A stretch of 58,782 nucleotides of DNA from a virus (taxonomy: Duplodnaviria > Caudoviricetes), in the IMG/VR virus record IMGVR_UViG_3300023181_000033, positions 1-58,782 of that record. One strand, written 5' to 3'. A program made the position numbers and the translations under genes. Numbering within the stretch: position 1 is the stretch's first letter; each line of letters opens with the position of its first letter. Below are positions 1 to 58,782 of this stretch, one piece after another. Below the pieces are notes generated by a model, which saw nothing but the letters and a program-made list of their open reading frames with translations, made no database searches and was not told the DNA's origin.

Positions 1-99
1 AAAATAAAGCAGGCAGCAAAAGAGTTTTGCGAGGCTGAGGGAGTATCTTTCTTCCAACATGTAGAAGCTAATGAAGGAAGAACTTATTATAAGCAGGGC
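1..99 (+). repeat. Exact 99-bp direct repeat, copy 1
   Basis: AAAATAAAGCAGG...TATAAGCAGGGC identical to 41924-42022; diverges at base 100 (G vs T). Confidence 0.97.
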
Positions 100-525
100 G
101 TTATATTGGAAAAATTCCTTCAGTCAATGATCGAAAAGGGAAAGGTTGTAACCAAAGATGAAGCTGACATATATCGTAGCAAAACAAGAGTTTTAACTAA
201 CGTTATTGAAAAGAACTGCCTTTTAGAAATAAAAACCGTTGACGGTTCTGATTTGGAATCAACCGTTTTAGGTGCCGGAAAGGAAGTGAATGACGAAAAA
301 ACGTCAAAATGGATACTTGATGAAGATTGTGTAAGATGCAATGATATTCCTTTGATAGAACAATCATTTCCGACAAAAGAGTCAAGAATAGCCATTAAAA
401 TAGCATCTAAAGCTATTGAAATGAAACAACTACTTGAAGAGTGCATTTACATATTTGTTTCAAATGATTATTCAGATAGAGAGTTTAAAAACAGAATATA
501 TAACCTATTAAAAGAAATACAATGA
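1..525 (+). CDS. Hypothetical protein, 5'-partial; its start lies at 41912 if unit A is circular
   Basis: Frame 1 open from base 1 (KIKQAAKEFCEAEG...KQGVILEKFLQ); ATG AAC AAA AAA at 41912 runs in frame into the repeat. Confidence 0.75.
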   Translation, partial: KIKQAAKEFCEAEGVSFFQHVEANEGRTYYKQGVILEKFLQSMIEKGKVVTKDEADIYRSKTRVLTNVIEKNCLLEIKTVDGSDLESTVLGAGKEVNDEKTSKWILDEDCVRCNDIPLIEQSFPTKESRIAIKIASKAIEMKQLLEECIYIFVSNDYSDREFKNRIYNLLKEIQ

Positions 526-701
526 TAAAAAATCAAGACAATAATAAGTCAAAAAAAGAATTATCCCTATTAATGTTCGCAAGAGAAGTAAATAACAGGA
601 TTAGATTCATAGGTGTAACCAAACCGAATGTTTTAACAATAGAAAAAGCTTATAAAAAAGGTTTGACCGTTAGCGATGCAGTATCATCTTTTATTAAATA
701 A
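522..701 (+). CDS. Small hypothetical protein (59 aa)
   Basis: ATGA overlap with the previous stop; MIKNQDNNKSKKELSLL...SSFIK. Confidence 0.6.
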   Translation: MIKNQDNNKSKKELSLLMFAREVNNRIRFIGVTKPNVLTIEKAYKKGLTVSDAVSSFIK

Positions 702-710
702 CATTTTTTT

Positions 711-959
711 ATGAAAACAGCAGAGTATTATTTAATTATAGCTTTAGAAGAATCAGGAATAACTACTACAGATGATATAGATTCCAAAATATTAAATGCT
801 ATGGAGGAATACGCCAATCAATTCAAGTCATCCCATGCCAGTACGGAAATGAAGTCGACTGGCGAATTTATTGCTGTAGCTGAAAAAAAGCTGGGACTAA
901 AATACCCTCACATAGCGGTAATAGAGGAAGCTAAAAGGATGTACAACGACCAACTATAA
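711..959 (+). CDS. Hypothetical protein with MKTAE...AMEEYA.QFK module
   Basis: ORF; N-terminal module shared with 33097-33411. Confidence 0.7.
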   Translation: MKTAEYYLIIALEESGITTTDDIDSKILNAMEEYANQFKSSHASTEMKSTGEFIAVAEKKLGLKYPHIAVIEEAKRMYNDQL

Positions 960-1015
960 CATTTTTATTGCAGGGGTTATAATTTATGGGTATATTTGAG
1001 TTTACAATAATTAAC

Positions 1016-1522
1016 ATGACCGAGCAAAGAAAACGTTTCGCAGATAGATATTTTGAAACTCTAAACGGGTCTCAGTCAGCTATTTACGCGGGATATTCTG
1101 AAGCTACCTCAAGACAAAAGGCATGGGAATTATTGAACGATCCTGAGGTTGAAGAATATTTATCTAAGCTAAAGGCAGAATATTCCGAAAAGTCAGGCAT
1201 AAGCAAGCAGAGGGTGCTAGATGAATATCGTAAAATTGCATTCTCTGATGTAAGGAATATCTTAACTATCGATGGTGGCTTAAAAAGTATAGATGATCTT
1301 GACGATGACACCGCTGGGGCAATAGCGGGGATAGAGTCCTTTGATGAATTTAGTCGTGATGGTGAAAAACTTGGGACAAACAGAAAGATTAAACTTCACG
1401 ATAAACTAAGGGCATTAGAGGCTTTGTCTAAGCACCTTGGATTGTTCGAAAAAGACAACAAGCAAAAAGAAAACCAGTCTACGGTTACAATATTCCAATT
1501 GCCTGATAATGGCAGAAAATAG
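1016..1522 (+). CDS. terS: Terminase small subunit (unit A)
   Basis: QRKRFADRY...SAIYAGYS...KIKLHDKLRALEALSKHLG motifs; upstream of TerL; TATATTTG at 991-998 favours the 1016 start. Confidence 0.9.
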   Translation: MTEQRKRFADRYFETLNGSQSAIYAGYSEATSRQKAWELLNDPEVEEYLSKLKAEYSEKSGISKQRVLDEYRKIAFSDVRNILTIDGGLKSIDDLDDDTAGAIAGIESFDEFSRDGEKLGTNRKIKLHDKLRALEALSKHLGLFEKDNKQKENQSTVTIFQLPDNGRK

Positions 1523-3038
1523 CATAAAATATATTCGGCCTCAAGAGGGGTACCAACTTGAATTTGCTTCTTCTCCTGCCGACATATGTATCGGAGGAGG
1601 CGCTGCGGGAGTTGGGAAAACTTTTTCATTGCTTCTGGAACCACTCAGGTATAAAGATATTGATGGGTTCGGGTCTGTAATATTTAGGCGTACTAATCCA
1701 CAAATCAGGAATGAGGGCGGGCTATGGGACACCTCGATGACATTATACAGTCTTCTAGGTGATGCTAATCCAAGACAAAGTAGTTTAGAGTGGGTGTTCG
1801 ATGTTTCTAAGCTAAAGTTTTCGCATCTTGAATATGAGAAAAATATATACGATTGGCAGGGTTCTCAAATTCCATTTATAGGCTTTGATGAGCTTACCCA
1901 CTTCACTAAAAAAATGTTCTTCTACCTACTTACACGTAATCGTTCTGTTTGCGGGGTGAACCCTTACGTTAGAGCAACTTGTAACCCTGATCCGGATAGT
2001 TGGGTAGCTGAATTTATATCGTGGTGGATAGACCAGGAAACAGGTTTTGCTATTCCGGAGCGTAAAGGTGTGTTAAGATACCTTGTTGTTGATGGTGAAA
2101 ATTATATTTGGGGCGATACACCGCAAGAGGCAATTGAAAAGGGCTGGCACATCATTGGGGAAGTAGCTGAAAAGTCAGGTATAGATCCTCTGTCATTCGT
2201 TAAATCAGTTACGTTTATAGGGGGGACTATTTACGACAACAAAGAATTGCTCAAAGAAAACCCGGCTTATCTAGGTAATTTACTGGCCCAAGATAAAGCT
2301 ACTCAGGCCGCTCTATTGCATTCAAACTGGAAAGTAGTGCTATCAGATAATGATATTTATGATTATGCTGCCTTTATTGGCATGTTTAACAACTTATACG
2401 AGGTTGACAGGACAGGCAAGTATATTACCGCAGATATTGCTATGAAAGGATCCGATAAGCTGATCGTATTTGCCTGGGAAGGTTATGAGTTGATTGATAT
2501 GATGATCCTGGATAAATCAAACGGTAAACAGGTGGTTACATCTATTGCTGGCATGGCATCAAGGCATTCAGTTCAAAACAGATACATAGCTTTTGATAAT
2601 GACGGAGTAGGGTCTTTTGTTGATGGGTTTATAGAAGGAGCCATTGAGTTTAACAACGGTGGACGTGCTTATCCTAGTCCAGACAAACCAATGAGGGATG
2701 CTAAAGGTAATGTTGTGCCCGAGAATTATCCCAATGTTAAAACACAATGTTATTACAGGTCGGGGGATAATGTTTTGAATGGAAAATACAAAATATCAGA
2801 ACATGTGGCTTCTATGATGTATGATGATAAGATGACTGTCAGACAAAGGTTAATACATGAACGTAAAGCAATAAAGCGTAAAAAGGCCGATATGGATGGT
2901 AAGCTACAAATAATAGGTAAAGACGAAATGAAAGCAGCACTTAACGGCCAATCCCCTGATTTAATGGATGCCTTTATGATGCGAGAGATATTCAATCTTA
3001 AAAAGGTTATAAAAGATCAAGAATTCTTTGCTGGTTAA
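1509..3038 (+). CDS. terL: Terminase large subunit (unit A; Terminase_6-like)
   Basis: Walker A GGAAGVGKT, Walker B IGFDELTHF, RATCNP coupling motif, nuclease residues TADIA and SPDLMDA. Confidence 0.93.
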   Translation: MAENSIKYIRPQEGYQLEFASSPADICIGGGAAGVGKTFSLLLEPLRYKDIDGFGSVIFRRTNPQIRNEGGLWDTSMTLYSLLGDANPRQSSLEWVFDVSKLKFSHLEYEKNIYDWQGSQIPFIGFDELTHFTKKMFFYLLTRNRSVCGVNPYVRATCNPDPDSWVAEFISWWIDQETGFAIPERKGVLRYLVVDGENYIWGDTPQEAIEKGWHIIGEVAEKSGIDPLSFVKSVTFIGGTIYDNKELLKENPAYLGNLLAQDKATQAALLHSNWKVVLSDNDIYDYAAFIGMFNNLYEVDRTGKYITADIAMKGSDKLIVFAWEGYELIDMMILDKSNGKQVVTSIAGMASRHSVQNRYIAFDNDGVGSFVDGFIEGAIEFNNGGRAYPSPDKPMRDAKGNVVPENYPNVKTQCYYRSGDNVLNGKYKISEHVASMMYDDKMTVRQRLIHERKAIKRKKADMDGKLQIIGKDEMKAALNGQSPDLMDAFMMREIFNLKKVIKDQEFFAG

Positions 3039-3081
3039 TTTGTAATTTTGTTGATACATAGAAATAGATTACTTTTATAGC

Positions 3082-4446
3082 ATGCAGTTAAAGAATTACG
3101 TCAAGACGGTAACAGCAGCGGTGTTACAGCCTATAGCTAAATCCTTGTGGGGGATTAATCCAAATGCCTCTATTGGCGTATCAATGCTGAATGATCGTGT
3201 TTTCAGGTGGAATCTGTCTGGAAATTCGGCCTATAATAATGGTATATTCTATACCGGAGCAAATATATTAGTTCGTAAAATGATAGAGGCTCCTATCACA
3301 TTTAACCAGAAGAAGGGTAAGCCTACTAAATCTATTGGCAAATACTACAGTAAAACCATAACGAGCAGCGAAAGAAATACGGTAAAGGCGGGAGTAGTTG
3401 ACGAATTGCCGGATCATGAGCTTAGCGAAATGTTCACCATTGAAACGATGGAGGATTTTTGGCATAATTATAACTTTGGGGACGGCTTTTTATGGTTTGA
3501 ACAACTTGGCGATGAGCTTACCAGGAACAGCAAGCCTATTAACGTGCATTCTCTTAGCCCTTCGAGAGTTGAGATCGTAACCAATGACGCGAAGTTTGAT
3601 AATGTTGCCTATTACAGGTACTCCTGCAAGAATGGAGAACAAATAAAGCTACCAAAAGAATCTGTATTACACTTAAGACACTGGAATCCTAATATAGGGG
3701 AATTGAAAGGTTACGGGGTAGATGTTGCAGCATCAAGGGATATATCCTTAAACAATGCAGGGAAAGACACTGAAGGCGCGGCATACGTTAATGGGGGTCG
3801 CGGCACACTGCTTAGTTCCGATGTTGAAATTGTAGACGGAGAACGGGTTGCAAAGATGACAGCCGAGCAAATGTCGTCACTTAAATCCACAATGGATAGC
3901 GACATGGCCGGAGCAAGGAATAACCGTAAGATGAATTATACTAACGGAAAAGTTGTAGTTACCCCATATGGCGATACGCTTGCGGAAATGGAGGTTAACA
4001 AATCTGAAGATAGCCGTTGGAAAAACATATTCGCCATACTTGGCTTACCTTGGGCTTTAACTCCTGTAGCAAGCCAGTCAAGTGAAAACAGCGTAGTTAC
4101 CGGGTATAAAGCCTTAGTGACAAACTTAGTCATATCAGAACTAAGGAAATTCGACCAGAAACTGACTAATATATTACAACAATGGTATAAAGGCATTATA
4201 GCTATATCTGATATTACTGAATACAGCGAATTAGCCCCTGATTTGAAGCTAATGAAAGAAATAGGATACGTTCCTTATGCAAGCGTAGATGAGAATAGAA
4301 AGGTATTTGGTCACGATGAGATAGGCGGAGAAATTGGGCAGGCTATATTAGTGCCATCCGGTCAAATGAAGATACAAGATATTATATCAGACGAATTTAC
4401 CAATGCTCCAGACGCTAACGATCCTAACGCACCTGAAAACCTGTAG
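3082..4446 (+). CDS. Portal protein (unit A, HK97-like)
   Basis: Follows TerL; GDGFLW, LSPSRVEI, VLHLRHWNP, SVDENRKVFGH motifs; homologue at 44238. Confidence 0.9.
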   Translation: MQLKNYVKTVTAAVLQPIAKSLWGINPNASIGVSMLNDRVFRWNLSGNSAYNNGIFYTGANILVRKMIEAPITFNQKKGKPTKSIGKYYSKTITSSERNTVKAGVVDELPDHELSEMFTIETMEDFWHNYNFGDGFLWFEQLGDELTRNSKPINVHSLSPSRVEIVTNDAKFDNVAYYRYSCKNGEQIKLPKESVLHLRHWNPNIGELKGYGVDVAASRDISLNNAGKDTEGAAYVNGGRGTLLSSDVEIVDGERVAKMTAEQMSSLKSTMDSDMAGARNNRKMNYTNGKVVVTPYGDTLAEMEVNKSEDSRWKNIFAILGLPWALTPVASQSSENSVVTGYKALVTNLVISELRKFDQKLTNILQQWYKGIIAISDITEYSELAPDLKLMKEIGYVPYASVDENRKVFGHDEIGGEIGQAILVPSGQMKIQDIISDEFTNAPDANDPNAPENL

Positions 4447-4448
4447 AT

Positions 4449-4611
4449 ATGGCGGCATTAGAAGTAATTATACTGCCATGGGAGAACGAACGCATATCGT
4501 AAAGGGTTTGAGGATGCCTTTATGATGATGGCTAACTTTGAAAATATGGATGAAACGTTGAATTGTAACAACATTGATACTCCTAATGACGAGGATAATA
4601 GTGATATTTGA
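4449..4611 (+). pseudogene. Frameshifted small acidic post-portal gene
   Basis: GAAC duplicated at 4484-4491; removing one copy gives 52-aa MAALEVIILPWENAYRKGFEDAF..., matching intact 45620-45778. Confidence 0.7.
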
Positions 4612-4614
4612 GGT

Positions 4615-4818
4615 ATGACAAGATTATCAAGAGCTATTCACTCGTTTTGGACTATATTAAATGGCAAGAATCATTCTTATGCCGATGATCGTATTTGCTT
4701 TCTTATTGGCAGAAAAGATGATATATGCAAAAACATAACTGATATTTCAACTCTTGCTACTGACGAAATACACAAGAACAACCTACTTTATGAGGCTAAG
4801 GAGATTTTAAATGCTTAA
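4615..4818 (+). CDS. Hypothetical protein (unit A only)
   Basis: ORF overlapping the gpF start. Confidence 0.55.
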   Translation: MTRLSRAIHSFWTILNGKNHSYADDRICFLIGRKDDICKNITDISTLATDEIHKNNLLYEAKEILNA

Positions 4819-5647
4819 CGAGTTCAAACAGGAGCGATTAGAGTTTGCCAGGTTCCACAAGAACGCGGAGAAACAGATGTTGCCTATTGTTAGGAAGGCT
4901 TTGAATAAGCAGGTAGAGAACGTGGTAGCATGGGTTAAGAACAATGGTGTAGAAAACGTGCCCGTTGAAATGCTGATCGATCGTTATGTATGGCGTAACA
5001 TGTACCCGCAATTGTATGAACAGTTCGGGATGAGTATGGCGAGATTGGAATATTACAGACAGCGTAGATTGGACGGCAATGCAAGTAAGGCAAGCGTGAT
5101 CGATTTTTTAAAAGATGTCTGGAGTGGCAAATTAAGACAGGCAGCCATATCATACGTAACCGGAATTGAAAACGCCCTAAATCAAACAACTATAGAGAAT
5201 GTCAGACGCGCTTTGACTAATGGATACGAGATAGGGTTAGACCGATTAGGCAGGATTAGGATATTCAATAGAGAAATATTTGACATCAACAAGGGTAGAG
5301 GGCTGACCATATCGAGAACAGAAACCAGCACAATAGCGAATCTAGGCAAAGAAATAGCCGCTAAATCTTGGATTGAACAACAAGGAAATGGTGAAGGGTA
5401 TAAAGTTTGGTTAGGCCGTATAAAGGGCGAACGCGATACGCATTTAGAAACTAATGATACTATTATACCGATGGAGGATAAGTATTCTCTTAGAGGCGAT
5501 CTATGCGACAGGCCAGGAGATGTGGAGTTGGAAGCTAAAAACCGCCTAAATTGTCGCTGCACTCAAAGTTTAATGGGTGAGGCAAGGTATCAGCAATATG
5601 TAAAAAGAAACCGGATAGTTAACGGCAAGTTGACCGGAGCAAGTTAA
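4811..5647 (+). CDS. Minor head protein, Mu gpF/SPP1 gp7-like
   Basis: ISRTET, KVW, RDTH, PGD...NCRCT motifs; follows portal. Confidence 0.88.
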   Translation: MLNEFKQERLEFARFHKNAEKQMLPIVRKALNKQVENVVAWVKNNGVENVPVEMLIDRYVWRNMYPQLYEQFGMSMARLEYYRQRRLDGNASKASVIDFLKDVWSGKLRQAAISYVTGIENALNQTTIENVRRALTNGYEIGLDRLGRIRIFNREIFDINKGRGLTISRTETSTIANLGKEIAAKSWIEQQGNGEGYKVWLGRIKGERDTHLETNDTIIPMEDKYSLRGDLCDRPGDVELEAKNRLNCRCTQSLMGEARYQQYVKRNRIVNGKLTGAS

Positions 5648-5749
5648 AATAGCTATATTTGTATTACACAAAAAATAAAAATCATGCTTTCCAAAGTTAT
5701 TTTTGTACGTACGGGGTGTTACTGGTAATAATATCCTGATCATTTTTCA

Positions 5750-5785
5750 CATCCACATCATAAAACGGTGTGGATTTTTTATTTA
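5750..5785 (+). terminator. Intrinsic terminator
   Basis: ATCCACATC/GGTGTGGAT stem followed by a T-tract. Confidence 0.65.
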
Positions 5786-5828
5786 TTTGCTATTTCGGAT
5801 TATTATGTATATTTGCTATTGTAACAAA
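5779..5828 (+). promoter_or_regulatory. 50-bp promoter linker upstream of the capsid cassette, identical to 46605-46654
   Basis: Contains TTTG, TATATTTG (-7 box) and TGTAACA; exact match in unit B. Confidence 0.8.
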
Positions 5829-5840
5829 CAAGTGAATGAG

Positions 5841-5936
5841 ATGAGCGATAAGAAAAAATTGACCGAAGAGGAAATTAAAAAGCTTAAAGCGGATAAGGTT
5901 AAAAAAGTAAAAGAGCAGGTAATCGTTAGAAAATGA
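5841..5936 (+). CDS. Small Lys-rich protein (31 aa)
   Basis: MSDKKKLTEEEIKKLKADK...; ATGA coupling to the protease gene. Confidence 0.55.
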   Translation: MSDKKKLTEEEIKKLKADKVKKVKEQVIVRK

Positions 5937-6739
5937 AAATAATCCTTCCAGAGTTTACGAATAAGTCCGAAAAGTTTGACTACCTAGTGGAGAACAAAAA
6001 GGATTTAGTTAACCTTAAGAAATCAGCTATTAAGTTGGTAGACCCTTTCGGTACATCTAAATTCGAGGAAAGCGTAATTAAGTCTCTTAACGAAACAAAC
6101 AACCAGGATACAGATTCTCAAATTAAAAGGACTGTTATAGGAAATACTTATAACTGGATGGACTCTCATGAAGATTCACATTTAGACAATGTATTTGCAA
6201 ATAGCATAGAGCAAAAGGGAGCAAAAAACATTAACCATTTCCATGATCACGTTGCTCAGTTAATGGCTAAAGTGGGTATACCTCAGGCAGTATATGAGAA
6301 ATATATAAATTGGACTGACTTAGGGGTTAATAAAAGCGGCCAGACAATGGCTTTATTTATGGACTCCCTAATTAAAAGGTCGATGAACCCTTCTATATTT
6401 GAGCAGTATAAAGAAGGACTGATTAATCAACATAGTGTCGGCATGCAATATGTCAATATCATGTTAGGGATTAATGACCCTGAACGCAAAGAAGAATACG
6501 GCATTTGGAGTCAATACGCACCTAAATTGGGGAACTATGCTAAGGCCGAACAATTAGGATACTGTTTCTTTGTAAAAGAAGCTAAGCTGATTGAAATATC
6601 CTGCGTAATTGCAGGTAGTAACGAATTAACAGGCACTTTGCCTAACAAAAATATTGACCCGTCCGAAGACAGTCAGGCAACACCAGACCCGCGTTTAGAG
6701 CAGTCAACTAAGTCCTATTGGGACATTTATTTAAACTAA
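5933..6739 (+). CDS. Prohead (capsid maturation) protease, unit A type
   Basis: DSHED, HFHDH, HSVG, LIEISCV..GSN motifs; precedes capsid gene. Confidence 0.8.
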   Translation: MKIILPEFTNKSEKFDYLVENKKDLVNLKKSAIKLVDPFGTSKFEESVIKSLNETNNQDTDSQIKRTVIGNTYNWMDSHEDSHLDNVFANSIEQKGAKNINHFHDHVAQLMAKVGIPQAVYEKYINWTDLGVNKSGQTMALFMDSLIKRSMNPSIFEQYKEGLINQHSVGMQYVNIMLGINDPERKEEYGIWSQYAPKLGNYAKAEQLGYCFFVKEAKLIEISCVIAGSNELTGTLPNKNIDPSEDSQATPDPRLEQSTKSYWDIYLN

Positions 6740-6746
6740 CAATAAC

Positions 6747-8132
6747 ATGAAAAAAGTATTTATTCCTGCAATGTCAGGGCTTGGTTCTGCATTTTTCCGC
6801 GCTAATTTATCTCCAGACGGGGGTGAAGGTAGCGGTTTGACAGACGAACAAAAGAAAGTTGCAGCACTTGCGGCAGTTAAACAGGCGGCAAAAGAAGAAG
6901 TAACGGCTATTTTACCAGATCTATTGACTAAAGGGTTAACTTCTGAAGAGGCTAAAACTGTTATCTCTAATGCTGTAAATGCAGCCTTTAAAGTGGCAAA
7001 GGTTGAAGATTTTGACGGTACTGAAAAAACGGTTACTGAAATCGTTAAAGAAATGCAAAAGCAGCACGATGCGCTTGCACTGGCATTCAAAAACAAAGGA
7101 TCTGAGGCTAATAAAAAAGGTGTTTTTGTTGAATTCGTAGAGAAAACCATTGCTGATAACGGTTTTAAAACCGGGACTGATAAAGGCAATGCCAAGTATA
7201 ACGAGACGTTCGAGTTTAAGGCTCCCGCTTTAATGACTACTGCAAACGTTGTGCCTAACGTAGCGGGTGGATTTTCACCATTATTTGGTAACTATATAGA
7301 CAATGAAATCGGTCACGTTCCAAAGCCGGCTCCTATTTTCATGCGTTTAGTTACGGTTACTTATCAGCCAGGTACAGAGAACATCTATTACACTGACCGT
7401 ATTAACGAAGAAGGTACAGCACAGTTTATAGCAGAGGGCGCATTAAAGCCTTTAATTGATGCAGAGTATAAAACTACTTCACTGCAAACAAAAGAGCTTG
7501 CAGAACGTTGGAAAATGACTACACGCCTAATGTACCACGCTCCTGCTGTTGTTACTGACTTTAGAGAGCATGCAAACGAGTTGATCGAGCAAGTTTTGGA
7601 TACTGCAGTATTAACAGGAGACAACACTGGTAACAACTTAAACGGTATTGTTGCTCAAGCTTCAGCGTTTGTTGTTCCGGCTCAATTAGCTGCTTATTAT
7701 GCAGAAGCTAATATTTGGGATGTTGTTATGGCAATGGCTACAGCCATTCGTTTGGCTAACTATAATGGTAAAATTACCGCAGTTCTCAATACTGTTTGGA
7801 TGGCTCAAATGGCTGGTATAAAAGATGGCGAAGGTCGTTACGTTATCGCTCCATTCGTTGCGCCTAACGGTAAAACAATTGGTGATGTTGAAGTAGAGTT
7901 TACCAATAAAATCCCGGCTACCGCTATTTTAGTTGGTGATCTGAAAAAATACAGATTGGTTATCTCTGAGAATGCAATCTATAACGAAGGTTATGAGAAT
8001 GATGACTTTTCTAAGAACTTAGTGTCTAAGAAAATCGAAACATTTGCTCAAGGTTATATCAAGCAGTCTGATAGAGGCGCAATCCTTTACGACACTATTG
8101 CTGACGTTTTAACCGACATTGCATCCGTATAA
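6747..8132 (+). CDS. Major capsid protein (HK97 fold, unit A)
   Basis: N-terminal delta-like region; AEGALKP, LTGDNTG..LNGI, KDGEGRY, LVGDLK, DFSKNL motifs. Confidence 0.92.
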   Translation: MKKVFIPAMSGLGSAFFRANLSPDGGEGSGLTDEQKKVAALAAVKQAAKEEVTAILPDLLTKGLTSEEAKTVISNAVNAAFKVAKVEDFDGTEKTVTEIVKEMQKQHDALALAFKNKGSEANKKGVFVEFVEKTIADNGFKTGTDKGNAKYNETFEFKAPALMTTANVVPNVAGGFSPLFGNYIDNEIGHVPKPAPIFMRLVTVTYQPGTENIYYTDRINEEGTAQFIAEGALKPLIDAEYKTTSLQTKELAERWKMTTRLMYHAPAVVTDFREHANELIEQVLDTAVLTGDNTGNNLNGIVAQASAFVVPAQLAAYYAEANIWDVVMAMATAIRLANYNGKITAVLNTVWMAQMAGIKDGEGRYVIAPFVAPNGKTIGDVEVEFTNKIPATAILVGDLKKYRLVISENAIYNEGYENDDFSKNLVSKKIETFAQGYIKQSDRGAILYDTIADVLTDIASV

Positions 8133-8184
8133 TTAACAGCCCCTTTAACCGGGGGGCTAAATAAATAACCATTATAATATTAAC

Positions 8185-8406
8185 ATGCCAGAAGAAGCAA
8201 AAGTTAAGGCGTTTGATTCACGAAAGATGATCGCTGAACACGCTGAGAAAGAAACTAAGATCAATTACAACGATAGGATGACTGTCGAAATCATTGAAGC
8301 CACAAAGTTTTACAAGAAAGGCGACATTATAAGCCCTCATAAAATAAAAGGCCAGGCTTTGATTGATCAAAAAATCGCCAAGAAGTACACCAAAAAAGAA
8401 GATTAG
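8185..8406 (+). CDS. Small post-capsid head accessory protein
   Basis: KKGDII...ALIDQKIAK pattern typical of small genes after HK97 capsids. Confidence 0.65.
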   Translation: MPEEAKVKAFDSRKMIAEHAEKETKINYNDRMTVEIIEATKFYKKGDIISPHKIKGQALIDQKIAKKYTKKED

Positions 8407-8421
8407 TAACTTATCCATACT

Positions 8422-8454
8422 AGCCCTTATCATTAATTTGGTAAGGGCTTTTTT
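8422..8454 (+). terminator. Intrinsic terminator ending the capsid operon
   Basis: AGCCCTTATCA/TGGTAAGGGCT stem plus T-tract. Confidence 0.8.
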
Positions 8455-8487
8455 ATTATATATCTTTACGTAACTAAAATAATACAA

Positions 8488-49449: not shown

Positions 49450-49486
49450 ATTAGCTATATTTGATTGTAACAAACATATTACGATC

Positions 49487-49684: not shown

Positions 49685-49685
49685 C

Positions 49686-49808: not shown

Positions 49809-50617
49809 TGGCGAATACACCAGTAACTAACGGCATGACTGTTGCTCAAATGGTAGCAATCATCAATACAATAGGCGTACAGGGGGATAATTCAGCACTG
49901 TCAATAGCAGAGCTGATATCTACCATGAGTACAAAGCTAAATGCAGCACAGGTACAAGCCTTGATTGATGCTTCTAGTGGAGGCGGTGGCGGTTCTGAAA
50001 CGAGGGAAAGCATTTTACTGAAGTTAGGCATTAGTGACATTTCTGGCGTAAATACCGGAGATCAGGACTTGACGGCGATTATCAGTGCATTAGCAGGTAA
50101 AGCAAGTCAAACTGATTTCAACAACCTGCAAACGGCTTATAATGCCTATGTAACGTCAAATAACAATGCGGTCGCAAGTAAAGTAGCACAATCGGTATAT
50201 GACACATTCGTTTCGGCTTACAATACGGCTATTGCGGCTAAGGTGGATACCGCTACGTACAACACCAATAAAACGAATACCGATGCGGCAATAGCAGCTT
50301 TAACGCCTACTGCTTTTAAAGATATTAATGGTAACTATACGTTTATACTTGCAGATGTCAAATCTAAGGGGCTTAGAAGTACTTCAGGGACATCCGCTAC
50401 GTGGACTATACCATTAAATACTACGGCTGCCTTTGCGGTTGAAGATACTATTCAAATTATTCAAAGAGGGGCTGGTGGCGTATTAATATCGCCTGCTGCG
50501 GGAGTTACTTTGGTTCAGATAGATAATAAATTTACCACTCGTGGGCCTGGAGCGGTCGCTGCATTACAGAAACAGGCATTAAATGAGTGGCTATTGATAG
50601 GGGATCTTTCGTTATGA
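49808..50617 (+). CDS. Head-region fibre N-terminal/adaptor protein (unit B)
   Basis: Shares QVQALIDAS.GGGGGSET.ESILLKLG...NTGDQDL with 8610; ends in TIP...Q.GAG...W.L.GDL domain. Confidence 0.7.
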   Translation: MANTPVTNGMTVAQMVAIINTIGVQGDNSALSIAELISTMSTKLNAAQVQALIDASSGGGGGSETRESILLKLGISDISGVNTGDQDLTAIISALAGKASQTDFNNLQTAYNAYVTSNNNAVASKVAQSVYDTFVSAYNTAIAAKVDTATYNTNKTNTDAAIAALTPTAFKDINGNYTFILADVKSKGLRSTSGTSATWTIPLNTTAAFAVEDTIQIIQRGAGGVLISPAAGVTLVQIDNKFTTRGPGAVAALQKQALNEWLLIGDLSL

Positions 50618-52260
50618 TGATTGGTAATTTGGGGGTGCAAACTCAAAGAGAGACACCATCCGCGATATTAAACATCGACAGTAAAAAATGGTCTTATAAC
50701 CCATTCAACTATACAAGCGGATTATTTTCTTACCCTGCTGCATTTGCACAAATTGCTTTTAAAACTACATCTACCGCTTTAAATGTAACTGGTGGTGGCA
50801 ACGCTACGGCAACACAGATAGAATTTACCGTGTATATAGATGGGGTATTTAATCAATATGTGTCTTACGCCTCAGATACTTTGAATACTGAGGTTGTAAA
50901 ATCAATAACGCTACCGGTGGGTAATAAAACAGTTATTATACTAAGTGGCACCAGGGTCATTAACGCTGGTGTTATACAAGGCAACTTCTTAACCAAAATA
51001 CAAGCTACGGACGGGGCTGTTATTCAATTTATAACTCCTAAAAATGGCACAGATAGAGTCGGTTATTTAGGTGACAGCATAAGTGTTAGCCAAACATCGG
51101 TGCATCCCTTTACGTCAGGGAGTATAGGGTATATCAGAACAAGTGCCACTTTTACCAAAACAATAGCTTCATACGGGTATGGAAGTTTAGAGTTATTTGA
51201 TTTGGTAGGGACACAACCAAAAATGACAGCAGTAATTAACAATTTAATCACCTATTATAGTAACTGCTTAGGCGAAACAAGTCTTATAATTCAATTAAGT
51301 ACAAACGATTATGGCCACAATGTAATTAATGCCGCAGACTTTCAAACTCTATATAATACATTTTTAGATCAATTGATCGCAGCAATGCCATCACTTAAAA
51401 TTACATGTATTACGGCTTTTGCTAGAACTAATGAAGCAGCAAACGGTCTTGGGAGTACATTAGAAATGTATAGAATAGCCATTAGGAATGCGGTAGTAGG
51501 CAGACCATATGCCAAAATACTAGAAGGGTCGTCGATTTTTAACGCGAGTAACTTAAGCGGAGACGGCATACATCCAAGTGACCCTGATGGATACAGACAG
51601 ATAGGGGTTGGGCTAGTCAAATCTATCATGAACATCCCCGAAGCTGCACCTACTGGCTCCTACGTATTAACAGCGGCCAGTGCTACTGGATTTGCTACAA
51701 TCCCAGCCTCAACAACGATTGCATTAGGAGGCAGAACAAATTGGACGGTAAGTTTGAAGGGTAGAAGAACTAGAGAGGGTGTTAATGATTGGTTTTTTTC
51801 CCAAGGAAACACAAATGCAGCTTTAAAAGTGTTTTTCTTAGGGTCGTCAGTCGGTAATAAAATAGTCGCCAATTTTCTTGGTACCACGATTACATCTAAC
51901 ATTGCTATTATAGACCAAAAATGGCATACGTACCATGTTGTAAAGGAAGGGTTGTTTGTTGTACTATATCAAGATGGTGTAAACGTAGGTTCTGTTACCT
52001 TGCCTGGGGATTTTACAGGTACTTCTGATTCATATGTAGGCAAGGCGGTTACTACATATGGACAGGTGAATGTAGATGATTTAAGAATCTTTGACATCGC
52101 ATTAACACCTAGTCAGATACTAGCAGACATAGCAACTGTTACGCCAACTGATTTTACAAACATATTGGCAGCTTATAATTTTAACGGAAATATTACGGAC
52201 ATTAGCGGTAAAGGCCACAACGGTACATTAGGTGCGGCCGCTTCATACGTAACAGCATAA
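50614..52260 (+). CDS. SGNH hydrolase plus LamG/ConA-like protein
   Basis: YLGDSI, STND, DGIHP; WHTYHVV...DDLRIFDIALT...YNFNG. Confidence 0.78.
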   Translation: MMIGNLGVQTQRETPSAILNIDSKKWSYNPFNYTSGLFSYPAAFAQIAFKTTSTALNVTGGGNATATQIEFTVYIDGVFNQYVSYASDTLNTEVVKSITLPVGNKTVIILSGTRVINAGVIQGNFLTKIQATDGAVIQFITPKNGTDRVGYLGDSISVSQTSVHPFTSGSIGYIRTSATFTKTIASYGYGSLELFDLVGTQPKMTAVINNLITYYSNCLGETSLIIQLSTNDYGHNVINAADFQTLYNTFLDQLIAAMPSLKITCITAFARTNEAANGLGSTLEMYRIAIRNAVVGRPYAKILEGSSIFNASNLSGDGIHPSDPDGYRQIGVGLVKSIMNIPEAAPTGSYVLTAASATGFATIPASTTIALGGRTNWTVSLKGRRTREGVNDWFFSQGNTNAALKVFFLGSSVGNKIVANFLGTTITSNIAIIDQKWHTYHVVKEGLFVVLYQDGVNVGSVTLPGDFTGTSDSYVGKAVTTYGQVNVDDLRIFDIALTPSQILADIATVTPTDFTNILAAYNFNGNITDISGKGHNGTLGAAASYVTA

Positions 52261-52271
52261 ATAAAACTAAC

Positions 52272-52820
52272 ATGGAACCAGTAACCTTACAAGAGATAAA
52301 AGCTTTCCTACGCATTGACGCTGACTATGTTGCTGAGGATAGTTTCCTGGAACTTACTGCGGGTGCAGCAAGGCAGATTATGCAGGATGAATTGAACATA
52401 GGACTTGTGCCGATGGAATTAGAGTTTCAATGGAACGGCCGTAAGCAAGAATTACCGTTAAGCCCTACTATTACTATTGTCAGCGTGAAAGATAGCGAAG
52501 GAGCAGATGTAGAATATGCTACAGACGGTTACCAAGCTAAATCTGTATGGGTGAATTGGAACGGTAATTCTGAAGGGCAATGGTTTTACTCTATATCTGG
52601 AGGTTATGCTGAATACACGCCATTTGGCCGTGTAGGAGACGAACCGTTGTACAAGTGCATCTATCAAACTGGCTATGAAGTATTACCTCAGACGCTTAAA
52701 TTAGCTTTGTTAGCACAAATTGACCACATGTATAAGTTACGTGGACAGCCAGAGGGGTCAATGGTTAGTCAGACCGCCTTAAACATGGCAAGTCGGTACT
52801 CTAGGAATTTGGTGATATGA
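52272..52820 (+). CDS. Head-tail connector (unit B)
   Basis: Near-identical to 10790-11338. Confidence 0.88.
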   Translation: MEPVTLQEIKAFLRIDADYVAEDSFLELTAGAARQIMQDELNIGLVPMELEFQWNGRKQELPLSPTITIVSVKDSEGADVEYATDGYQAKSVWVNWNGNSEGQWFYSISGGYAEYTPFGRVGDEPLYKCIYQTGYEVLPQTLKLALLAQIDHMYKLRGQPEGSMVSQTALNMASRYSRNLVI

Positions 52821-53167
52821 AAAAAAAGCTAATCACGTCTGGCGATTTAAACCAAAGTATTGAGATATATAAGCAGTCACTTGTCGAAGATGGCAGCGGT
52901 GGCACTTACCCCTTAGACGTCCTATATTGGGCTACTTCAGCTATGACAGATCAGATTAGGGCAGGTAGGACATTGCAGGCTTTACAGGATATACTAACAC
53001 CGGCAGTAACGTTTACAGTGCGCTATAGGCAAGATAAGTTTATAACGCCTGATATGCGTATTAAATGGAGAGGGCAATATTTTACAGTTATTACCGCTGA
53101 GGTGGATTTCGTAGCGAAGGAATGGCTGGTTATTATTGGTAGGGCTGAAGCTTTGCCGGAGAGGTAA
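52817..53167 (+). CDS. Head closure protein (unit B)
   Basis: Homologue of 11335-11685. Confidence 0.88.
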   Translation: MKKKLITSGDLNQSIEIYKQSLVEDGSGGTYPLDVLYWATSAMTDQIRAGRTLQALQDILTPAVTFTVRYRQDKFITPDMRIKWRGQYFTVITAEVDFVAKEWLVIIGRAEALPER

Positions 53168-53202
53168 TAAAAAAGCCCACCTGAACTTAATCGGGTGGGC
53201 TA
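53168..53202 (-). terminator. Terminator between convergent genes
   Basis: A-tract plus AGCCCACC/GGTGGGCT stem. Confidence 0.7.
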
Positions 53203-53237
53203 ATAATCCCGACTGAACTATCAGGAAACAGGCAGAA

Positions 53238-53606
53238 TTAATGAAATTCTAATCTTTGTTTTTTCTCTAATGCCAACTTGCAACCATCAATAAATGTTTG
53301 AGTTTTCTCTGCGTAATTACCGATATGCCCGCCGCCATCTTCTTTTTCTAGAAAAGGCAATATTTTAGTTAAAGCATCAATAATACCAGGTAATTTTGAC
53401 CTATTAATATAGCCATCGCAATCAGAATGATAAAGCAAAGGTGTTAATGGATGTTTTGTATCAAACTTTATAGCGTTTTTATCATCAGTAAAACCTTCCA
53501 TTTTATTTAAATCAGGTAATCCTGAGACTTCTGCAATTTTCATTCTCCACCTCATGAATGCGCTATAAGCCCCGTGCCAAGCATTGTGTGAAATATCTAA
53601 TCCCAT
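53238..53606 (-). CDS. Moron hypothetical protein occupying the Imm5-like slot
   Basis: MGLD...W.G.YS.F..WR..IA, LL.HSDCDG, FI.GC..A. Confidence 0.75.
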   Translation of the reverse strand: MGLDISHNAWHGAYSAFMRWRMKIAEVSGLPDLNKMEGFTDDKNAIKFDTKHPLTPLLYHSDCDGYINRSKLPGIIDALTKILPFLEKEDGGGHIGNYAEKTQTFIDGCKLALEKKQRLEFH

Positions 53607-53690
53607 TTTGATAGTTTTTTATATAGCTGAATTGCTACGATACAAATGTAACTACTAATCCTTATATTTGAATGTAACAAGTTAGGTACA

Positions 53691-54200
53691 ATGGCAAAAG
53701 TATTTAGGAATTTCGGGGACATGTCTGCTGCACTTAAAAAGGTTACTGAGGATTTTGCTAAGGAGGCGCGGGGCTTGGTTGAATATAACCTTGGAGAACT
53801 TGAGTTGCAAGCAATACGCGACGCTCCGGCATCAGGTGACCCTATAGCCACAGAGTACGGTAATGAATCTCAGGAAGATATAGCAAGAGGTAGGGCGTGG
53901 ACTCCAATAAACCAGGCAATAGGATATGCACTTGATGTGCCAAGTAAGGGGCTTAAAGGAACCGTATACGTTGATAAATCTGCAGGCAACATTGTGGCAT
54001 TTGTGGAATTTGGGACTGGTCAATCAGCAGCATACTATGTAAACACGCTCCCTCCAGAGTTTCAGGCTACCGCGCGCAAATTTTTCGTGAATGGCAAGGG
54101 CAAGATACTCGCAAAACCATTTTTACTTCCTGCATTTTTTAAATACAGCGTCCAATTCAAAAAAGAAATGGCTGAGGCCGTTAAAAACATATCATTCTGA
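53691..54200 (+). CDS. Neck protein HK97 gp10-like (unit B)
   Basis: Homologue of 12448-12957. Confidence 0.82.
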   Translation: MAKVFRNFGDMSAALKKVTEDFAKEARGLVEYNLGELELQAIRDAPASGDPIATEYGNESQEDIARGRAWTPINQAIGYALDVPSKGLKGTVYVDKSAGNIVAFVEFGTGQSAAYYVNTLPPEFQATARKFFVNGKGKILAKPFLLPAFFKYSVQFKKEMAEAVKNISF

Positions 54201-54670
54201 TGAAAAGCACAACATTGCCAATCCGCAAAGCCTTCTACCAAGTCATTAACACTGACCTGAAATACCAAAACGTAACTATTCCGGTATACGAGGAATATAT
54301 TCCGGCCGCTGCTAAGCCTGCAGTATTGATTTTCAACAATCAAACGGTAAAGGCTTATGTCATCTTGCTAAACCAGACGAGTAACTTTGATCCGGTTTTG
54401 AAGTGCGTTAGAAATGACCAATCGTCCATACAGGTACAAGTAACTACTCAATTTCCATCTGGAACGGGCGGTTCTGAGCTGGCTGAATTGATAGGGGACT
54501 TGATTAAGGCTAAGATATTCCCAACGGCAAATACGAACGCTCTACAATTAGATCCGGCATTCAAACTTTGGAAATGTAGCTATGAATCGGGGCGTAACAT
54601 CCCATATGACACTGAAACTAACCGAGTATGGGTGCATCAAATGACATTTCTTTGCTATGTTGCGCAGTGA
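54200..54670 (+). CDS. Tail terminator (unit B)
   Basis: Near-identical to 12957-13427. Confidence 0.75.
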   Translation: MKSTTLPIRKAFYQVINTDLKYQNVTIPVYEEYIPAAAKPAVLIFNNQTVKAYVILLNQTSNFDPVLKCVRNDQSSIQVQVTTQFPSGTGGSELAELIGDLIKAKIFPTANTNALQLDPAFKLWKCSYESGRNIPYDTETNRVWVHQMTFLCYVAQ

Positions 54671-54809
54671 TTTAGAAGCTCAGGCAGAGGTTTTATATCC
54701 AATGCCCGAGCGGTGTTGTGATTGGAAGCGCAAAAAGATTATTTGGCTTCGGATGAAGTGGGTTGAGAAACAGCAGACTATACTTTATAAATCAACTTCG
54801 AATAATTGA
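54657..54809 (+). CDS. Unannotated 50-aa protein (homologue of 13414-13587)
   Basis: Synonymous-only divergence over the first 38 codons. Confidence 0.7.
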   Translation: MLRSDLEAQAEVLYPMPERCCDWKRKKIIWLRMKWVEKQQTILYKSTSNN

Positions 54810-54990
54810 TTTTCTTACCCAATACAATATAAGAATTAAACCAACCCGTAAAAGGAAGCACAAAATATAATATACCATAACCTTTAATTGTCCATTTTTT
54901 TCTATCTGTTTCGCCATTAGCATCATAAGAAGCATAAACCCTTATGAATAAAAATTGAACTATATAATTCACGCAACCTAGTAATGTCAT
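54778..54990 (-). CDS. Small moron protein
   Basis: ORF track. Confidence 0.55.
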   Translation of the reverse strand: MTLLGCVNYIVQFLFIRVYASYDANGETDRKKWTIKGYGILYFVLPFTGWFNSYIVLGKKINYSKLIYKV

Positions 54991-55166
54991 TGTTGTTCAC
55001 CTCCTTCCTCACTCAACTTTGCCAGTCTTTCTTGCCTCCTATTCGGTAAAGGCTTAGCATCGCTTGACGACTGTTCATTTCGTTCAGTCCTTACCAATTT
55101 GCTTATCTTTTGCTCTAAAACCTGAACGCGTTGTTCTAGGGAGCTGATTTGTTCTTTTTGTGTCAT
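54987..55166 (-). CDS. Small coiled-coil moron protein (homologue of 13771-13953)
   Basis: MTQKEQISSLEQRVQVLEQK. Confidence 0.7.
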   Translation of the reverse strand: MTQKEQISSLEQRVQVLEQKISKLVRTERNEQSSSDAKPLPNRRQERLAKLSEEGGEQQ

Positions 55167-55456
55167 ATAGAAATATTCAATAGTCTAATAATTGTAAAAT
55201 AATCATCTTCAGTTAATTCTGGATTTAAAGTAAAAAATGAACGCTCCGGGGTTTCGTTTATCCAGTGCAATTCTGAAATGCTAAAGGATCCGTACAAGCC
55301 TATTGAGCAAACTAAACTTGAATTCTTTATATGTTTAAAAGTTTCATATAAAGGTTTTTCTTCTTCTAAGACCCAGCCTTTAGAAAGTAGGAATTTTCTG
55401 TTAATCTTTATTTTCTCTTGAGCTTGTATGCTAAATGGTGTTGTTGGGGTTTTCAT
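55163..55456 (-). CDS. Moron hypothetical protein (unit B only)
   Basis: ORF inserted between two genes that are adjacent in unit A. Confidence 0.6.
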   Translation of the reverse strand: MKTPTTPFSIQAQEKIKINRKFLLSKGWVLEEEKPLYETFKHIKNSSLVCSIGLYGSFSISELHWINETPERSFFTLNPELTEDDYFTIIRLLNISI

Positions 55457-55458
55457 AT

Positions 55459-55704
55459 CTATTCTTCTTCTAATTTATGTATTCCAGGAATATGCACGTA
55501 ATTAATCGGCTTCATCTTCTGGTCGTGTTTCATTGTTTTGCCTTTGTTTTGGTGACCATTGTGAAATTTAGTGCAATGCGGGCACTTATAACTAACCATC
55601 CGTTTCTTTTTACACCCCTTGTTGATATTGGCTACAGATGAATTTGCCTGTTCTGCTGTATCATAGGATATCTTGCCTAAGCATGCGTTTTCGGTTCGGA
55701 TCAT
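55459..55704 (-). CDS. Small Zn-ribbon protein (homologue of 13956-14201)
   Basis: YKCPHCTKFH. Confidence 0.75.
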   Translation of the reverse strand: MIRTENACLGKISYDTAEQANSSVANINKGCKKKRMVSYKCPHCTKFHNGHQNKGKTMKHDQKMKPINYVHIPGIHKLEEE

Positions 55705-55707
55705 AGG

Positions 55708-55947
55708 CTAATCATCTATTTTAAGTGTAAATTTTTGTACATACCAAGATTCATACGCCCCAAATTTAGGTTTCCAGCCTTTCTTGTCGTCATAAATCCT
55801 ATCAAATTCTTTTTTTTCTTTTGCTTTATGAGCGTTCATAGCTTCGGTAGCCCCTTTTTTAGTTCTGTGGTAAGAAACGATGTAAGATGCTGACTCATAA
55901 TGCATAGGGTTATAATAGAACGCCCATAATTTAATTTCCTTTTCCAT
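55708..55947 (-). CDS. Moron hypothetical protein
   Basis: YESA...S.HRTKKGA..AM..HK; -7 box at 55951-55958. Confidence 0.65.
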   Translation of the reverse strand: MEKEIKLWAFYYNPMHYESASYIVSYHRTKKGATEAMNAHKAKEKKEFDRIYDDKKGWKPKFGAYESWYVQKFTLKIDD

Positions 55948-56040
55948 ACCCAAATATAAGCGATATACATTTCTCATTTTGTACTATTGTTGTTACAAAG
56001 CTATTTACCTATCTTTGGTAAACAACTTTAAATTAAAGCC

Positions 56041-56523
56041 ATGCCAGTATTTGACCCAATTTTAGGTACAGAGTTTATTATTGAGATAGACACTGAAACC
56101 CGAACAACTACTCCTACCGCAGTGAGGGGTGTAGACGCTAATTTCAGACCCGTAGTGTGTTTAGTCAGTAATGGCGTGGATGCTACTGCTGCCGATCAGG
56201 AAACGACTAATAAATGCTCTGGAGGCTTTAAAACTTCCCAGTCAGGTGTGAAGTCGTGGAACATCACCGGCAACGGACAGGCTATCTCAGCAGCTCAAGC
56301 GCCGGAAGCTGATTATGCGAACTTTAACGAGTTAATGGAGCTTTGGAAATCGGGTACAGCGTTTTTTGCGCGTATCACCAATACCGCTTCTACTCTATAT
56401 TACCGTGAAGGGTTAGTATATAACTCGTCTCAATCAGAAGGCCAGCCAAACCAAGAGGCGATTACTTTTGATATTACCCTAACCGGAATAGGCGAATTAT
56501 TCTTATCACCTCCAACCGTATAG
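56041..56523 (+). CDS. Major tail tube protein (unit B)
   Basis: Same length as and highly similar to 14635-15117. Confidence 0.88.
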   Translation: MPVFDPILGTEFIIEIDTETRTTTPTAVRGVDANFRPVVCLVSNGVDATAADQETTNKCSGGFKTSQSGVKSWNITGNGQAISAAQAPEADYANFNELMELWKSGTAFFARITNTASTLYYREGLVYNSSQSEGQPNQEAITFDITLTGIGELFLSPPTV

Positions 56524-56524
56524 T

Positions 56525-56887
56525 ATGAACGGAGTAGCAAAAGTTACCATTAAAGGCAAAGAATACCCGTTGAAATTTGGGGTACAGGCCATGCTCGTAT
56601 ACGAAGAAGAGGTTAACAAGAACCCATTAGCAGAAGGGGTGGCGGCTGGAATGGCTGCCACTTGTATTGTTCTGTATGCAGGGCTTATTGGAAATTCTAT
56701 CAGGAGTAGACAGCCAGTCATGCCGTTTGAAGAGGTATACGACTTAATGTACGACGGGCTGGCACTAGAGCCAGACTTCAATACTCAGGTCACCAGGATG
56801 TGGGGTGCTTTCAACGAAAGCATACAGCCAATAGTGAAGAGTAAAGAAGAAGGCGAAAGTGTCAAAAAAAAAGCCCCGAAGAAATAG
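56525..56887 (+). CDS. Tail assembly chaperone (unit B)
   Basis: Homologue of 15119-15502; A9G at 56864-56873. Confidence 0.82.
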   Translation: MNGVAKVTIKGKEYPLKFGVQAMLVYEEEVNKNPLAEGVAAGMAATCIVLYAGLIGNSIRSRQPVMPFEEVYDLMYDGLALEPDFNTQVTRMWGAFNESIQPIVKSKEEGESVKKKAPKK

Positions 56888-57234
56888 CCGCAAATAAGGC
56901 GACCAAAGAGGAGATACTATGTTTAGCTTTTGGTGAAATGGGGTTGATGCCTCATGAGCTGGAAGAATACACGGTTTCACAATTTGACGCTAAATGCCGG
57001 GGATTCGTCAGGGGTGCTGAAAAAATGGAGTCTATCGCAAGAAGGATGACTGGGTTTATTGTGGCCCCACATTTAGATAAAAAAGCAAAGTTCGATATTA
57101 CCAATGCTTGGCCTATACTGAGCGTTGATGAAAAAAATACATACCGAGCCCAGGCTGTCCAAAGTAAGGCTAAAATAGCTCAAATGATGGATAGGCTGGC
57201 ACAACAAAAGAAATCATGGCAGACGGTCAGTTAA
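56864..57234 (+). CDS. Tail chaperone extension via -1 frameshift (unit B)
   Basis: -1 frame open from A9G through ILCLAFGEMGLMPHE. Confidence 0.75.
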
Positions 57235-58782
57235 GCGTATCATTACAGGCGGATATAGCAGGGTTTGTTAGAAACATGCAATCTGCAGCTACTGTTGCTG
57301 ATCAGACAGGGACATCAGTAAGTAAGCTGTCCACTAATGTAAGTCAGAACATTGCCGCGATAAACAGCGTTAACCTTAAGCAGCTAAATGCGTCTCTAGA
57401 GCAAAGTTCTGCCCCGTTAAAAGCAATAGCCGCAGAGTCTGAAAAAGCAGCTACAGGCATTAGCGCTTTTGCATCAAATGGCGCTAAGTCGATTAGGAGC
57501 TTAGAGATTCAGCTACAATCTTATCAAAGGGTGTCTGCTGCCGCTACAGACCCTGCAATAATAGCGCAGTACAACAAGAAGATCTCAGAAACTCAGAGCG
57601 AAATACAAAAGCTTAATAATATAGGTAAGCGAGGATACGATGAAATAGGAAATAGGATAAAGGCTACCATAGGCCAGCAAGAAGTGCTTACTAGCAGGCT
57701 TAAGTACTTCCAGGACCAGTTAAACTACGCTAGGGCCCCACAATCTTTTGTCGCATTAAATCAAAAAATACAGGAAACAGAAAACCAGTTAAATAGGCTA
57801 TCTAACGCTGGGAAAAAGGGGTTTGACGATCTCGGCAATAAAATAAAAGAAGTAGACGGCAACTCTAGCAAATTTCTTACTACCCTGAAAGGAATAGGCG
57901 GTGCTATTGCCGCGGCCTTTAGTGGACAGGTCATTTTATCATTCATAAAAGACTCAAGAGAACTTGCTGCAAGGGGAGAGGGTATTAGGGATGCCTTCTC
58001 TAGGCTGGACGAAGGAAATACGTTACAGATACTAAGGGACGCTACAAGAGGGGCTACGTCTGACATTGAATTGATGTCTGCTGCTCTTAGGGCCAGAAAT
58101 TTCCAAATAGCCCCCGGATTGCTCGCTAAAGGGTTAGAGCTTGCGGGGAAAATATCAAGGCAAACGGGGCAAGACGTTACTTATCTTGCTGATAGTTTTG
58201 TAAATGGACTAGGAAGGAGGTCTTTACTTATACTCGACAACCTTCAAATATCTCAGGTTCAATTAAGGGCTGAGATTAAAAAAACAGGCGACTTTCAAAC
58301 TGCTGTTGGCAATTTAGTTACGCAGAAGCTTGCCTCTATTGGCGAGGTAGCTATAACAACGGCAGATAAAATGGCGCAGTTTGCTACTAGGATAGCTAAC
58401 ATAAAGGAGCTTGTAGGTCAAAAGATAAACTTTGTTCTTAATTATGATTCATTAAGGGACGCAAATAAGGAGTTTTATGATACTGGCCTGCAAGTTAGGT
58501 CTCTTCAGAATAATATTTTGCCGTTAATAGATAGGTACGATCAATTATTCAGAAAAGCTAGCGATTTAGGCGGCTTCACGAAGCTGGCTAAGGATGAGCA
58601 AAAGGAAATGAAGGACGCTATCAAGCAGGTGGCTGAAGTTATCCCAAGTGCAATTGATCAGTTTGACGGGTACGGTAATGCAATAGGCATAAATACAGAT
58701 AGGGCAAAAGACTTCATTAAACAACAGGTTTTAGTGCTACAGGCATTGAATGCCAAAAGAATAGATGAGACGACCAATAGTT
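57216..58782 (+). CDS. Tape measure protein (unit B), 3'-truncated by window end
   Basis: MADGQLSVSLQADIAGFVRNMQ start shared with 15828; frame appears open to the end. Confidence 0.88.
   Translation, partial: MADGQLSVSLQADIAGFVRNMQSAATVADQTGTSVSKLSTNVSQNIAAINSVNLKQLNASLEQSSAPLKAIAAESEKAATGISAFASNGAKSIRSLEIQLQSYQRVSAAATDPAIIAQYNKKISETQSEIQKLNNIGKRGYDEIGNRIKATIGQQEVLTSRLKYFQDQLNYARAPQSFVALNQKIQETENQLNRLSNAGKKGFDDLGNKIKEVDGNSSKFLTTLKGIGGAIAAAFSGQVILSFIKDSRELAARGEGIRDAFSRLDEGNTLQILRDATRGATSDIELMSAALRARNFQIAPGLLAKGLELAGKISRQTGQDVTYLADSFVNGLGRRSLLILDNLQISQVQLRAEIKKTGDFQTAVGNLVTQKLASIGEVAITTADKMAQFATRIANIKELVGQKINFVLNYDSLRDANKEFYDTGLQVRSLQNNILPLIDRYDQLFRKASDLGGFTKLAKDEQKEMKDAIKQVAEVIPSAIDQFDGYGNAIGINTDRAKDFIKQQVLVLQALNAKRIDETTNS

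Follow-up and report, generated by a model that had tools for sequence, protein, structure and literature searches.

The window analysed here is the whole of the IMG/VR virus record IMGVR_UViG_3300023181_000033 (58,782 bases, classed as linear, with a CheckV completeness of 100), a sequence of the class Caudoviricetes in which the genes for head, packaging and tail occur in two divergent sets. We conclude with high confidence that assembly has joined two related phages from one sample in this record, which is thus a chimera and not a single phage with two sets of particle genes. Its first part, unit A (positions 1–41923), is most likely the complete circular (or circularly permuted) genome of phage A, 41,923 bp in length, while unit B (42023–58782) comes from phage B, a mosaic relative about two thirds as abundant as A; the record as a whole amounts to 1.4 unit lengths. 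A sequence-only reading of the window had preferred the same explanation, two co-occurring related phages that were joined, and it is supported by the depth of the two sides, by a second way into the sequence at which they meet, by the closure of circle A, and by relatives that each carry one such set of genes.

Two genomes probably meeting in a common block

The units meet at an exact direct repeat of 99 nt (repeat family D12), in which positions 1–99 and 41924–42022 are 100% identical, and which is the only exact word of at least 77 nt that A and B have in common. The repeat lies inside a protein-coding gene, here called gene X, just upstream of the packaging genes. When unit A is closed as a circle, gene X (start at 41912, then 1–525) is an intact frame of 178 amino acids. 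This circular junction, which links 41923 to base 100 and which the sequence-only reading had set against the A-to-B join, is contiguous in L003, an independent 4778-nt contig from another sample: it runs from 41653–42022 (98.4% identical) straight into 100–848 (95.1%), contains the 99 nt once, and keeps the frame of gene X unbroken, with 98.9% identity over residues 1–178. At the other end of the window we found no return to A, as no suffix (11–150 nt) of the last 150 nt is present there. Ninety-nine is a standard word size of de Bruijn assemblers, and the relative G003, which comes from a sister data set, has an end repeat of 127 nt; nothing here rests on these word sizes.

Relatives of the two units have genomes of one module each. 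A scan of IMG/VR with the large terminase subunit (TerL) of B returned 27 related loci, of which three records were fetched whole: G001 (40,271 bp, completeness 100), G003 (39,911 bp, with a 127-nt terminal repeat) and G004 (41,965 bp). In each of them the genes for TerL, portal and capsid are present once, and circle A, at 41,923 bp, lies within their size range of 39.9–42.0 kb. Unit A alone thus resembles a normal genome of the group, a statement that holds for A only, B being a fragment.

Of the words sampled from 38000–46000, 99% occur in the public sequencing run X1, which is marked as a possible source of the record. We compared its contigs with 38783–58782, taking one mean word depth per k = 31 contig as the measure of depth throughout. 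On the A side, the contig from ~35483 to 40869 has a depth of 15.8, and a depth of 15 was obtained for an A-derived contig, part of which lies on B (joint 54769>55014), whereas the six B contigs listed stand at 10.4 (41993–46166), 10.4 (46625–53177), 11.4, 11.6, 7 and 9.1. The inequality between the two sides that the sequence-only reading had proposed to look for is therefore present in these contig means (15.8 and 15 versus 7–11.6). Just before the join, the contig covering 40840–41521 has a depth of 24.4, approximately the sum of A (15–16) and B (~10). The start of the first B contig, 41993, precedes 42023 by exactly 30 nt (k − 1), the offset that a forking word graph would produce, and the 99-nt repeat ends at the same join; all three observations place the join at the end of a stretch common to both genomes.

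That stretch is a block of ~1.2 kb (~40800–42022) and not just the 99 nt, which are the part that the contig shows twice. It can be entered in two ways, from the A contig ending at 40869 and from a second X1 contig, of depth 6.46, which enters at 40800 out of sequence unlike the window, and it can be left in two ways, to base 100 (as in L003) and to base 42023. Two ways in and two ways out at differing depths give the picture of two genomes sharing a repeat. By eye, the loose end before 40800 resembles the end of an 87-amino-acid gene found immediately upstream of the block in L038. This contig, which comes from another sample, is 94% identical to the window over 40794–41955, has a different early region upstream of the block, and carries a gene X with 64% identity over residues 1–178. 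At its far end, the last B contig in X1 continues 1274 nt beyond the end of the window, and B is therefore a fragment of something larger. Within the block, position 41373 is G in the record and T both in the X1 contig of depth 24.4 and in a contig of a further run, X2; here the record may follow a minor allele or mix the sequences of both phages. Runs X2–X4 contain only small parts of the stretch compared, mainly 38783–41955, or none of it, and we draw no inference from their gaps.

A walk through the assembly graph would account for this structure. The assembler would have set out from the fork between the two genomes, gone once around A and come back through the common block, where, with the A exit already used, it would have taken the exit to B, stopping 16.8 kb later in the tape-measure gene of B and leaving the end of the block written twice as the 99-nt repeat. 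We infer this walk, and likewise that the second entry belongs to phage B, from the contigs just described. Contigs that join different genomes arise from repeats common to coexisting related viruses, a cause described in a passage of PMC5610896. The present case resembles known chimeric contigs from metagenomes and viromes in having a near-identical stretch longer than the assembler can bridge, a depth that differs between its sides, and one unit that closes on itself; it differs from simple hybrid contigs in that the full circle of A was completed first, so that the product looks like 1.4 unit lengths with a duplicated module.

Several observations weigh against this account. Depth within the block is uneven, falling from 24.4 to 10.5 at 41522 and standing at 20.3 at 41726, and the depth of the second entry (6.46) differs from that of the B exit (10.4), a mismatch that implicates a third variant or noise. 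X1 contigs also leave unit B for other sequence at 43611, 50585, 53178, 53643 and 57070, which implies further variants in the sample and at least a third mosaic relative. X1 probably represents the source sample, and its contigs are then no independent check on the assembly; its depths are single means per contig, and the evidence across the 1.2-kb block comes from contigs, not from read pairs or long reads. Lastly, an early region belonging to B was not recovered as an IMG/VR contig: the exact block word matched only L038 and L039 there, the 87-amino-acid gene of L038 matched only L038 itself, and a scan with the last 41 nt of the window gave 0 matches.

Other origins for the join

Chimeric reads, produced as an artefact of the library or of amplification, could also have made the join, in which case phage B would lack the common block and its real upstream sequence would be something else. 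The state of gene X speaks for this, since the join truncates it out of frame, whereas in G001 a full-length homologue of X continues directly into B-like sequence; moreover, a scan of IMG/VR with the word spanning the join found it exactly in 0 other contigs. We nevertheless regard chimeric reads as a very improbable source, as the B contig of depth 10.4 begins exactly k − 1 nt inside the block, none of the loose ends listed lies before 42023, so that no other major upstream sequence for B was seen, and the block depth of 24.4 is close to that of A plus B, as expected if both genomes contain it. On the favoured reading, with X truncated at the join and of full length in G001, the phage B of this sample itself seems to be recombinant and to carry a shortened X.

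Still less probable is that the record depicts a real molecule, such as an A–B co-integrate, a hetero-concatemer or a tandem prophage pair that arose by recombination in the 1.2-kb block during co-infection. If this were true, a single replicating DNA would encode two head and packaging modules of divergent sequence, and one cell could then yield particles of two types or of mixed composition. Words across 42022/42023 do exist in the X1 reads, with the B contig starting 30 nt inside the block; some mixed concatemers would be expected from two co-replicating phages with such a block; and the pairing of entries with exits was not directly observed. However, in a single molecule the segment of A, the exit to B and the second entry would have to be equally deep, and their values are 15.8, 10.4 and 6.46, respectively. 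The molecule would also exceed 60 kb, against 39.9–42.0 kb and one module in each of the three relatives fetched whole, and it would cut the conserved gene X to 37 codons at the join, instead of joining at an attachment site. In the window, PF00589 (tyrosine integrase) and PF00239 (serine recombinase) gave 0 matches, with control genomes positive, and no tRNA genes were found, so the features looked for in a tandem prophage or co-integrate are absent. The analysis gave no support to the other possibility raised by the sequence-only reading, a phage that could specify two types of particle.

Least probable of all is a true recombinant genome with the backbone of A and the module of B, the module at the start of the contig coming from the other phage: such swaps do occur in nature, as in G001, and the unobserved pairing at the block would allow one, but 100 to 40869 is one unbroken contig stretch and A-type sequence has a depth of 15–15.8 where measured (the contig near 54769 and that of 35483–40869), and because module A is thus linked to the early region of A at that depth, B at 10.4 cannot replace it on this backbone. 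We therefore retain the reading of the record as two phages joined by assembly, and describe the two units on that basis.

The two morphogenesis modules

Matches to PHROGs and Pfam in both halves bear out the observation, made earlier from the letters alone, that the genes from the small terminase subunit (TerS) to the tape measure occur twice in the same order. Common to A and B is the succession TerS, TerL, portal, gpF-like head morphogenesis protein, HK97-type major capsid protein, fibre-like protein, head-tail adaptor, tube and tape measure (Table 1; TerS of B and both tape measures are named from PHROGs only). Each copy contains TerS, TerL, a PF04860 portal, a PF05065 capsid protein, tube and tape measure in canonical order and so belongs to the HK97-type modules of siphoviruses, whose head and tail gene order, from TerS, TerL and portal through protease or scaffold, capsid, adaptors, tube and chaperones to the tape measure, both follow. 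They differ from each other in that module A has a 268-amino-acid protein (5933–6739) with no family match at the place where module B has an S78 prohead protease. Equally upheld is the presence of a single lysis and a single replication block, since one endolysin gene and one replication region were seen in the window.

Table 1. Positions of the units, the blocks at which they meet and their main genes
Feature	Position	Strand	Remarks
Unit A, full turn of a circular phage genome	1–41923	+	41,923 bp on closing at the 99-nt repeat
Layout of unit A	986–18038; to ~23968; remainder	+	morphogenesis genes; tail and fibre genes; then lysis, early and replication genes
Unit B, 16.8-kb fragment of a second, related phage	42023–58782	+	small genes, then TerS to incomplete tape measure
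99-nt repeat, copy 1	1–99	+	part of gene X
99-nt repeat, copy 2	41924–42022	+	closing 99 nt of the common block; the contig passes from A to B after it
Block S, common to both co-occurring phages	40800–42022	+	recurs in relatives as a mosaic block; from X1 depth and branching, and L038
Gene X at the A-to-B join	41912–42025	+	cut to 37 codons; out of frame
Module A	986–18038	+	TerS (Terminase_2), TerL (Terminase_6N), portal (PF04860), gpF-like, 268-amino-acid protein without family, HK97-type capsid (PF05065), fibre-like, adaptor, tube, tape measure
Module B	42436–58782	+	TerS, TerL (Terminase_3/3C), portal, gpF-like, S78 protease, HK97-type capsid, GIY-YIG endonuclease, fibre-like proteins, adaptor, tube, tape measure (incomplete)
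50-nt intergenic block, A copy	5779–5828	+	100% identical to 46605–46654; TTTG..TAnnTTTG promoter-like site; switch from B-type to A-type in G001
50-nt intergenic block, B copy	46605–46654	+	
41-nt intergenic block, A copy	12399–12439	+	100% identical to 53643–53683
41-nt intergenic block, B copy	53643–53683	+	X1 contigs break at 53643
Endolysin of unit A, the only one seen	26737–27327	+	phrog_315, E 1.8e-30
Recombination and replication genes of unit A	31938–39565	+	exonuclease, methyltransferase, initiator-like, helicase-like
Exonuclease	31938–32585		replication region of unit A
Initiator-like gene	37794–38585		replication region of unit A
Helicase-like gene	38585–39565		replication region of unit A

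The resemblance between the copies is uneven along their length. By blastp, the gpF-like proteins are 91% identical, the adaptors 93%, the products of the gene after the adaptor 86% and the tubes 86%, and two further pairs, 12424/53691 and 12957/54200, reach 75% and 96%. These proteins are indeed alike, as the sequence-only reading had said of gpF, connector, tube and others, but its term 'near-identical' was too strong for DNA blocks that are 72–92% identical; in the same way, two conserved gene pairs stand behind its labels 'closure' and 'terminator', whereas the names themselves were not confirmed. Its description of the portals as clearly diverged agrees with a protein identity of 51% (blastp), and blastp and Pfam likewise confirm that TerS, TerL, capsid and tape measure differ substantially. 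The capsid proteins are 34% identical (blastp), neither the TerS nor the TerL proteins of A and B match each other by blastp at E 1e-3, and the two TerL proteins fall into different Pfam families, Terminase_6N in A and Terminase_3/3C in B. Likeness between the tape measures is confined to the first 83 residues (61% identical), and the frame of the B gene is open at its 3′ end, the window stopping inside it.

Other genes in and around the modules distinguish the units or recur in both. Directly 3′ of the capsid gene of B lies a gene for a GIY-YIG homing endonuclease (48668–49417, + strand; Pfam E 1.5e-07, phrog_314 E 2e-27), which is absent from the same place in unit A and in G001 and might act as a driver of local allele replacement. 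Unit A alone has an open reading frame (ORF) of 210 amino acids at 11743–12375 (− strand), whose N-terminal part is weakly similar to the Imm5 immunity protein (E 0.00055, below the curated cut-off) and is followed by ~90 residues of 'AAYAADAAA'-type repeats that correspond to repeat family D1, with 9- and 12-nt spacing; this ORF is possibly a moron. In both units, small reverse-strand ORFs (13533–14549 and 55163–55977, both −) separate the tail-completion-like genes from the tube gene; they match no Pfam family, and one pair only is common to A and B (13956–14201/55459–55704, 86% amino acid identity). Downstream of the tape measure in unit A, ORF 20806–21342 (+) is ~33% identical over ~122 residues to the tube protein (14635–15117) and represents a tube-like paralogue, which is present in G001 and G003 as well.

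Cassette exchange among the relatives

The 40-kb relative G001 combines the two types found in the window. It is 92.6% identical to B over 42023–46654, then becomes A-type over 5779–8529 (95.2%), and further on alternates between B-like and A-like blocks before continuing with late and early regions like those of A. This structure shows that the packaging module of B belongs in an ordinary 40-kb genome. In terms of proteins, G001 (loci L031, L032 and L004) has TerS, TerL and portal of B type (98.5–99.5% amino acid identity) together with a 268-amino-acid protein and capsid protein of A type (98.3–99.6%). Its first switch falls in the 50-nt block of which A and B have fully identical copies (Table 1), and the G001 structure shows that phages of this group commonly exchange cassettes at short conserved blocks between genes. 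Head parts with identities as low as 51% (portal) and 34% (capsid) seem to be interchangeable.

The promoter-like pattern TTTG..TAnnTTTG, one instance of which lies in the 50-nt block, occurs 7 times against 2.97 expected, a count reached in 4 of 100 shuffles and too weak to name a host; we take the pattern to be typical of Bacteroidota, which at this strength does not suffice for a host assignment. A scan of genome contigs with TerL of B gave no relative that could indicate the host, and megablast of public phage records with 42023–58782 and with 18000–41923 gave no match.

Exchange appears to extend into single genes. Residues 95–521 of the B tape measure (57216–58781, +) are 71–75% identical to tape measures of phage contigs of 55–65 kb (L040–L043), and with its first 83 residues like those of A, the gene is, on these alignments, itself mosaic. 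We considered whether these 55–65-kb phages might be genomes with two modules, and rejected them as such, as the four loci have nothing else in common with the window except a short fibre-like match in L041.

Tailed phages evolve in a mosaic, modular manner, with gene cassettes exchanged at conserved boundary sequences, and A, B and G001 likewise differ by replacements of whole genes with sharp boundaries. Nothing here is unusual in kind by comparison with such mosaicism, but the exchanged alleles are very distant, with portals at 51%, capsid proteins at 34% and TerL proteins of different Pfam families.

Our finding is mainly a note on data quality: a public record scored as 100% complete is most likely one complete genome of 41.9 kb plus a piece of another phage, and taken at face value it would mislead analyses of genome size, gene content and clustering. 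The underlying biology is real but ordinary, that of a mosaic, siphophage-like population in leaf-litter metagenomes that swaps head and packaging genes at short identical intergenic blocks. Within it, the pairing in G001 of a B-type terminase and portal with an A-type capsid gives a slight hint, open to testing, that head parts of very divergent sequence can function together.

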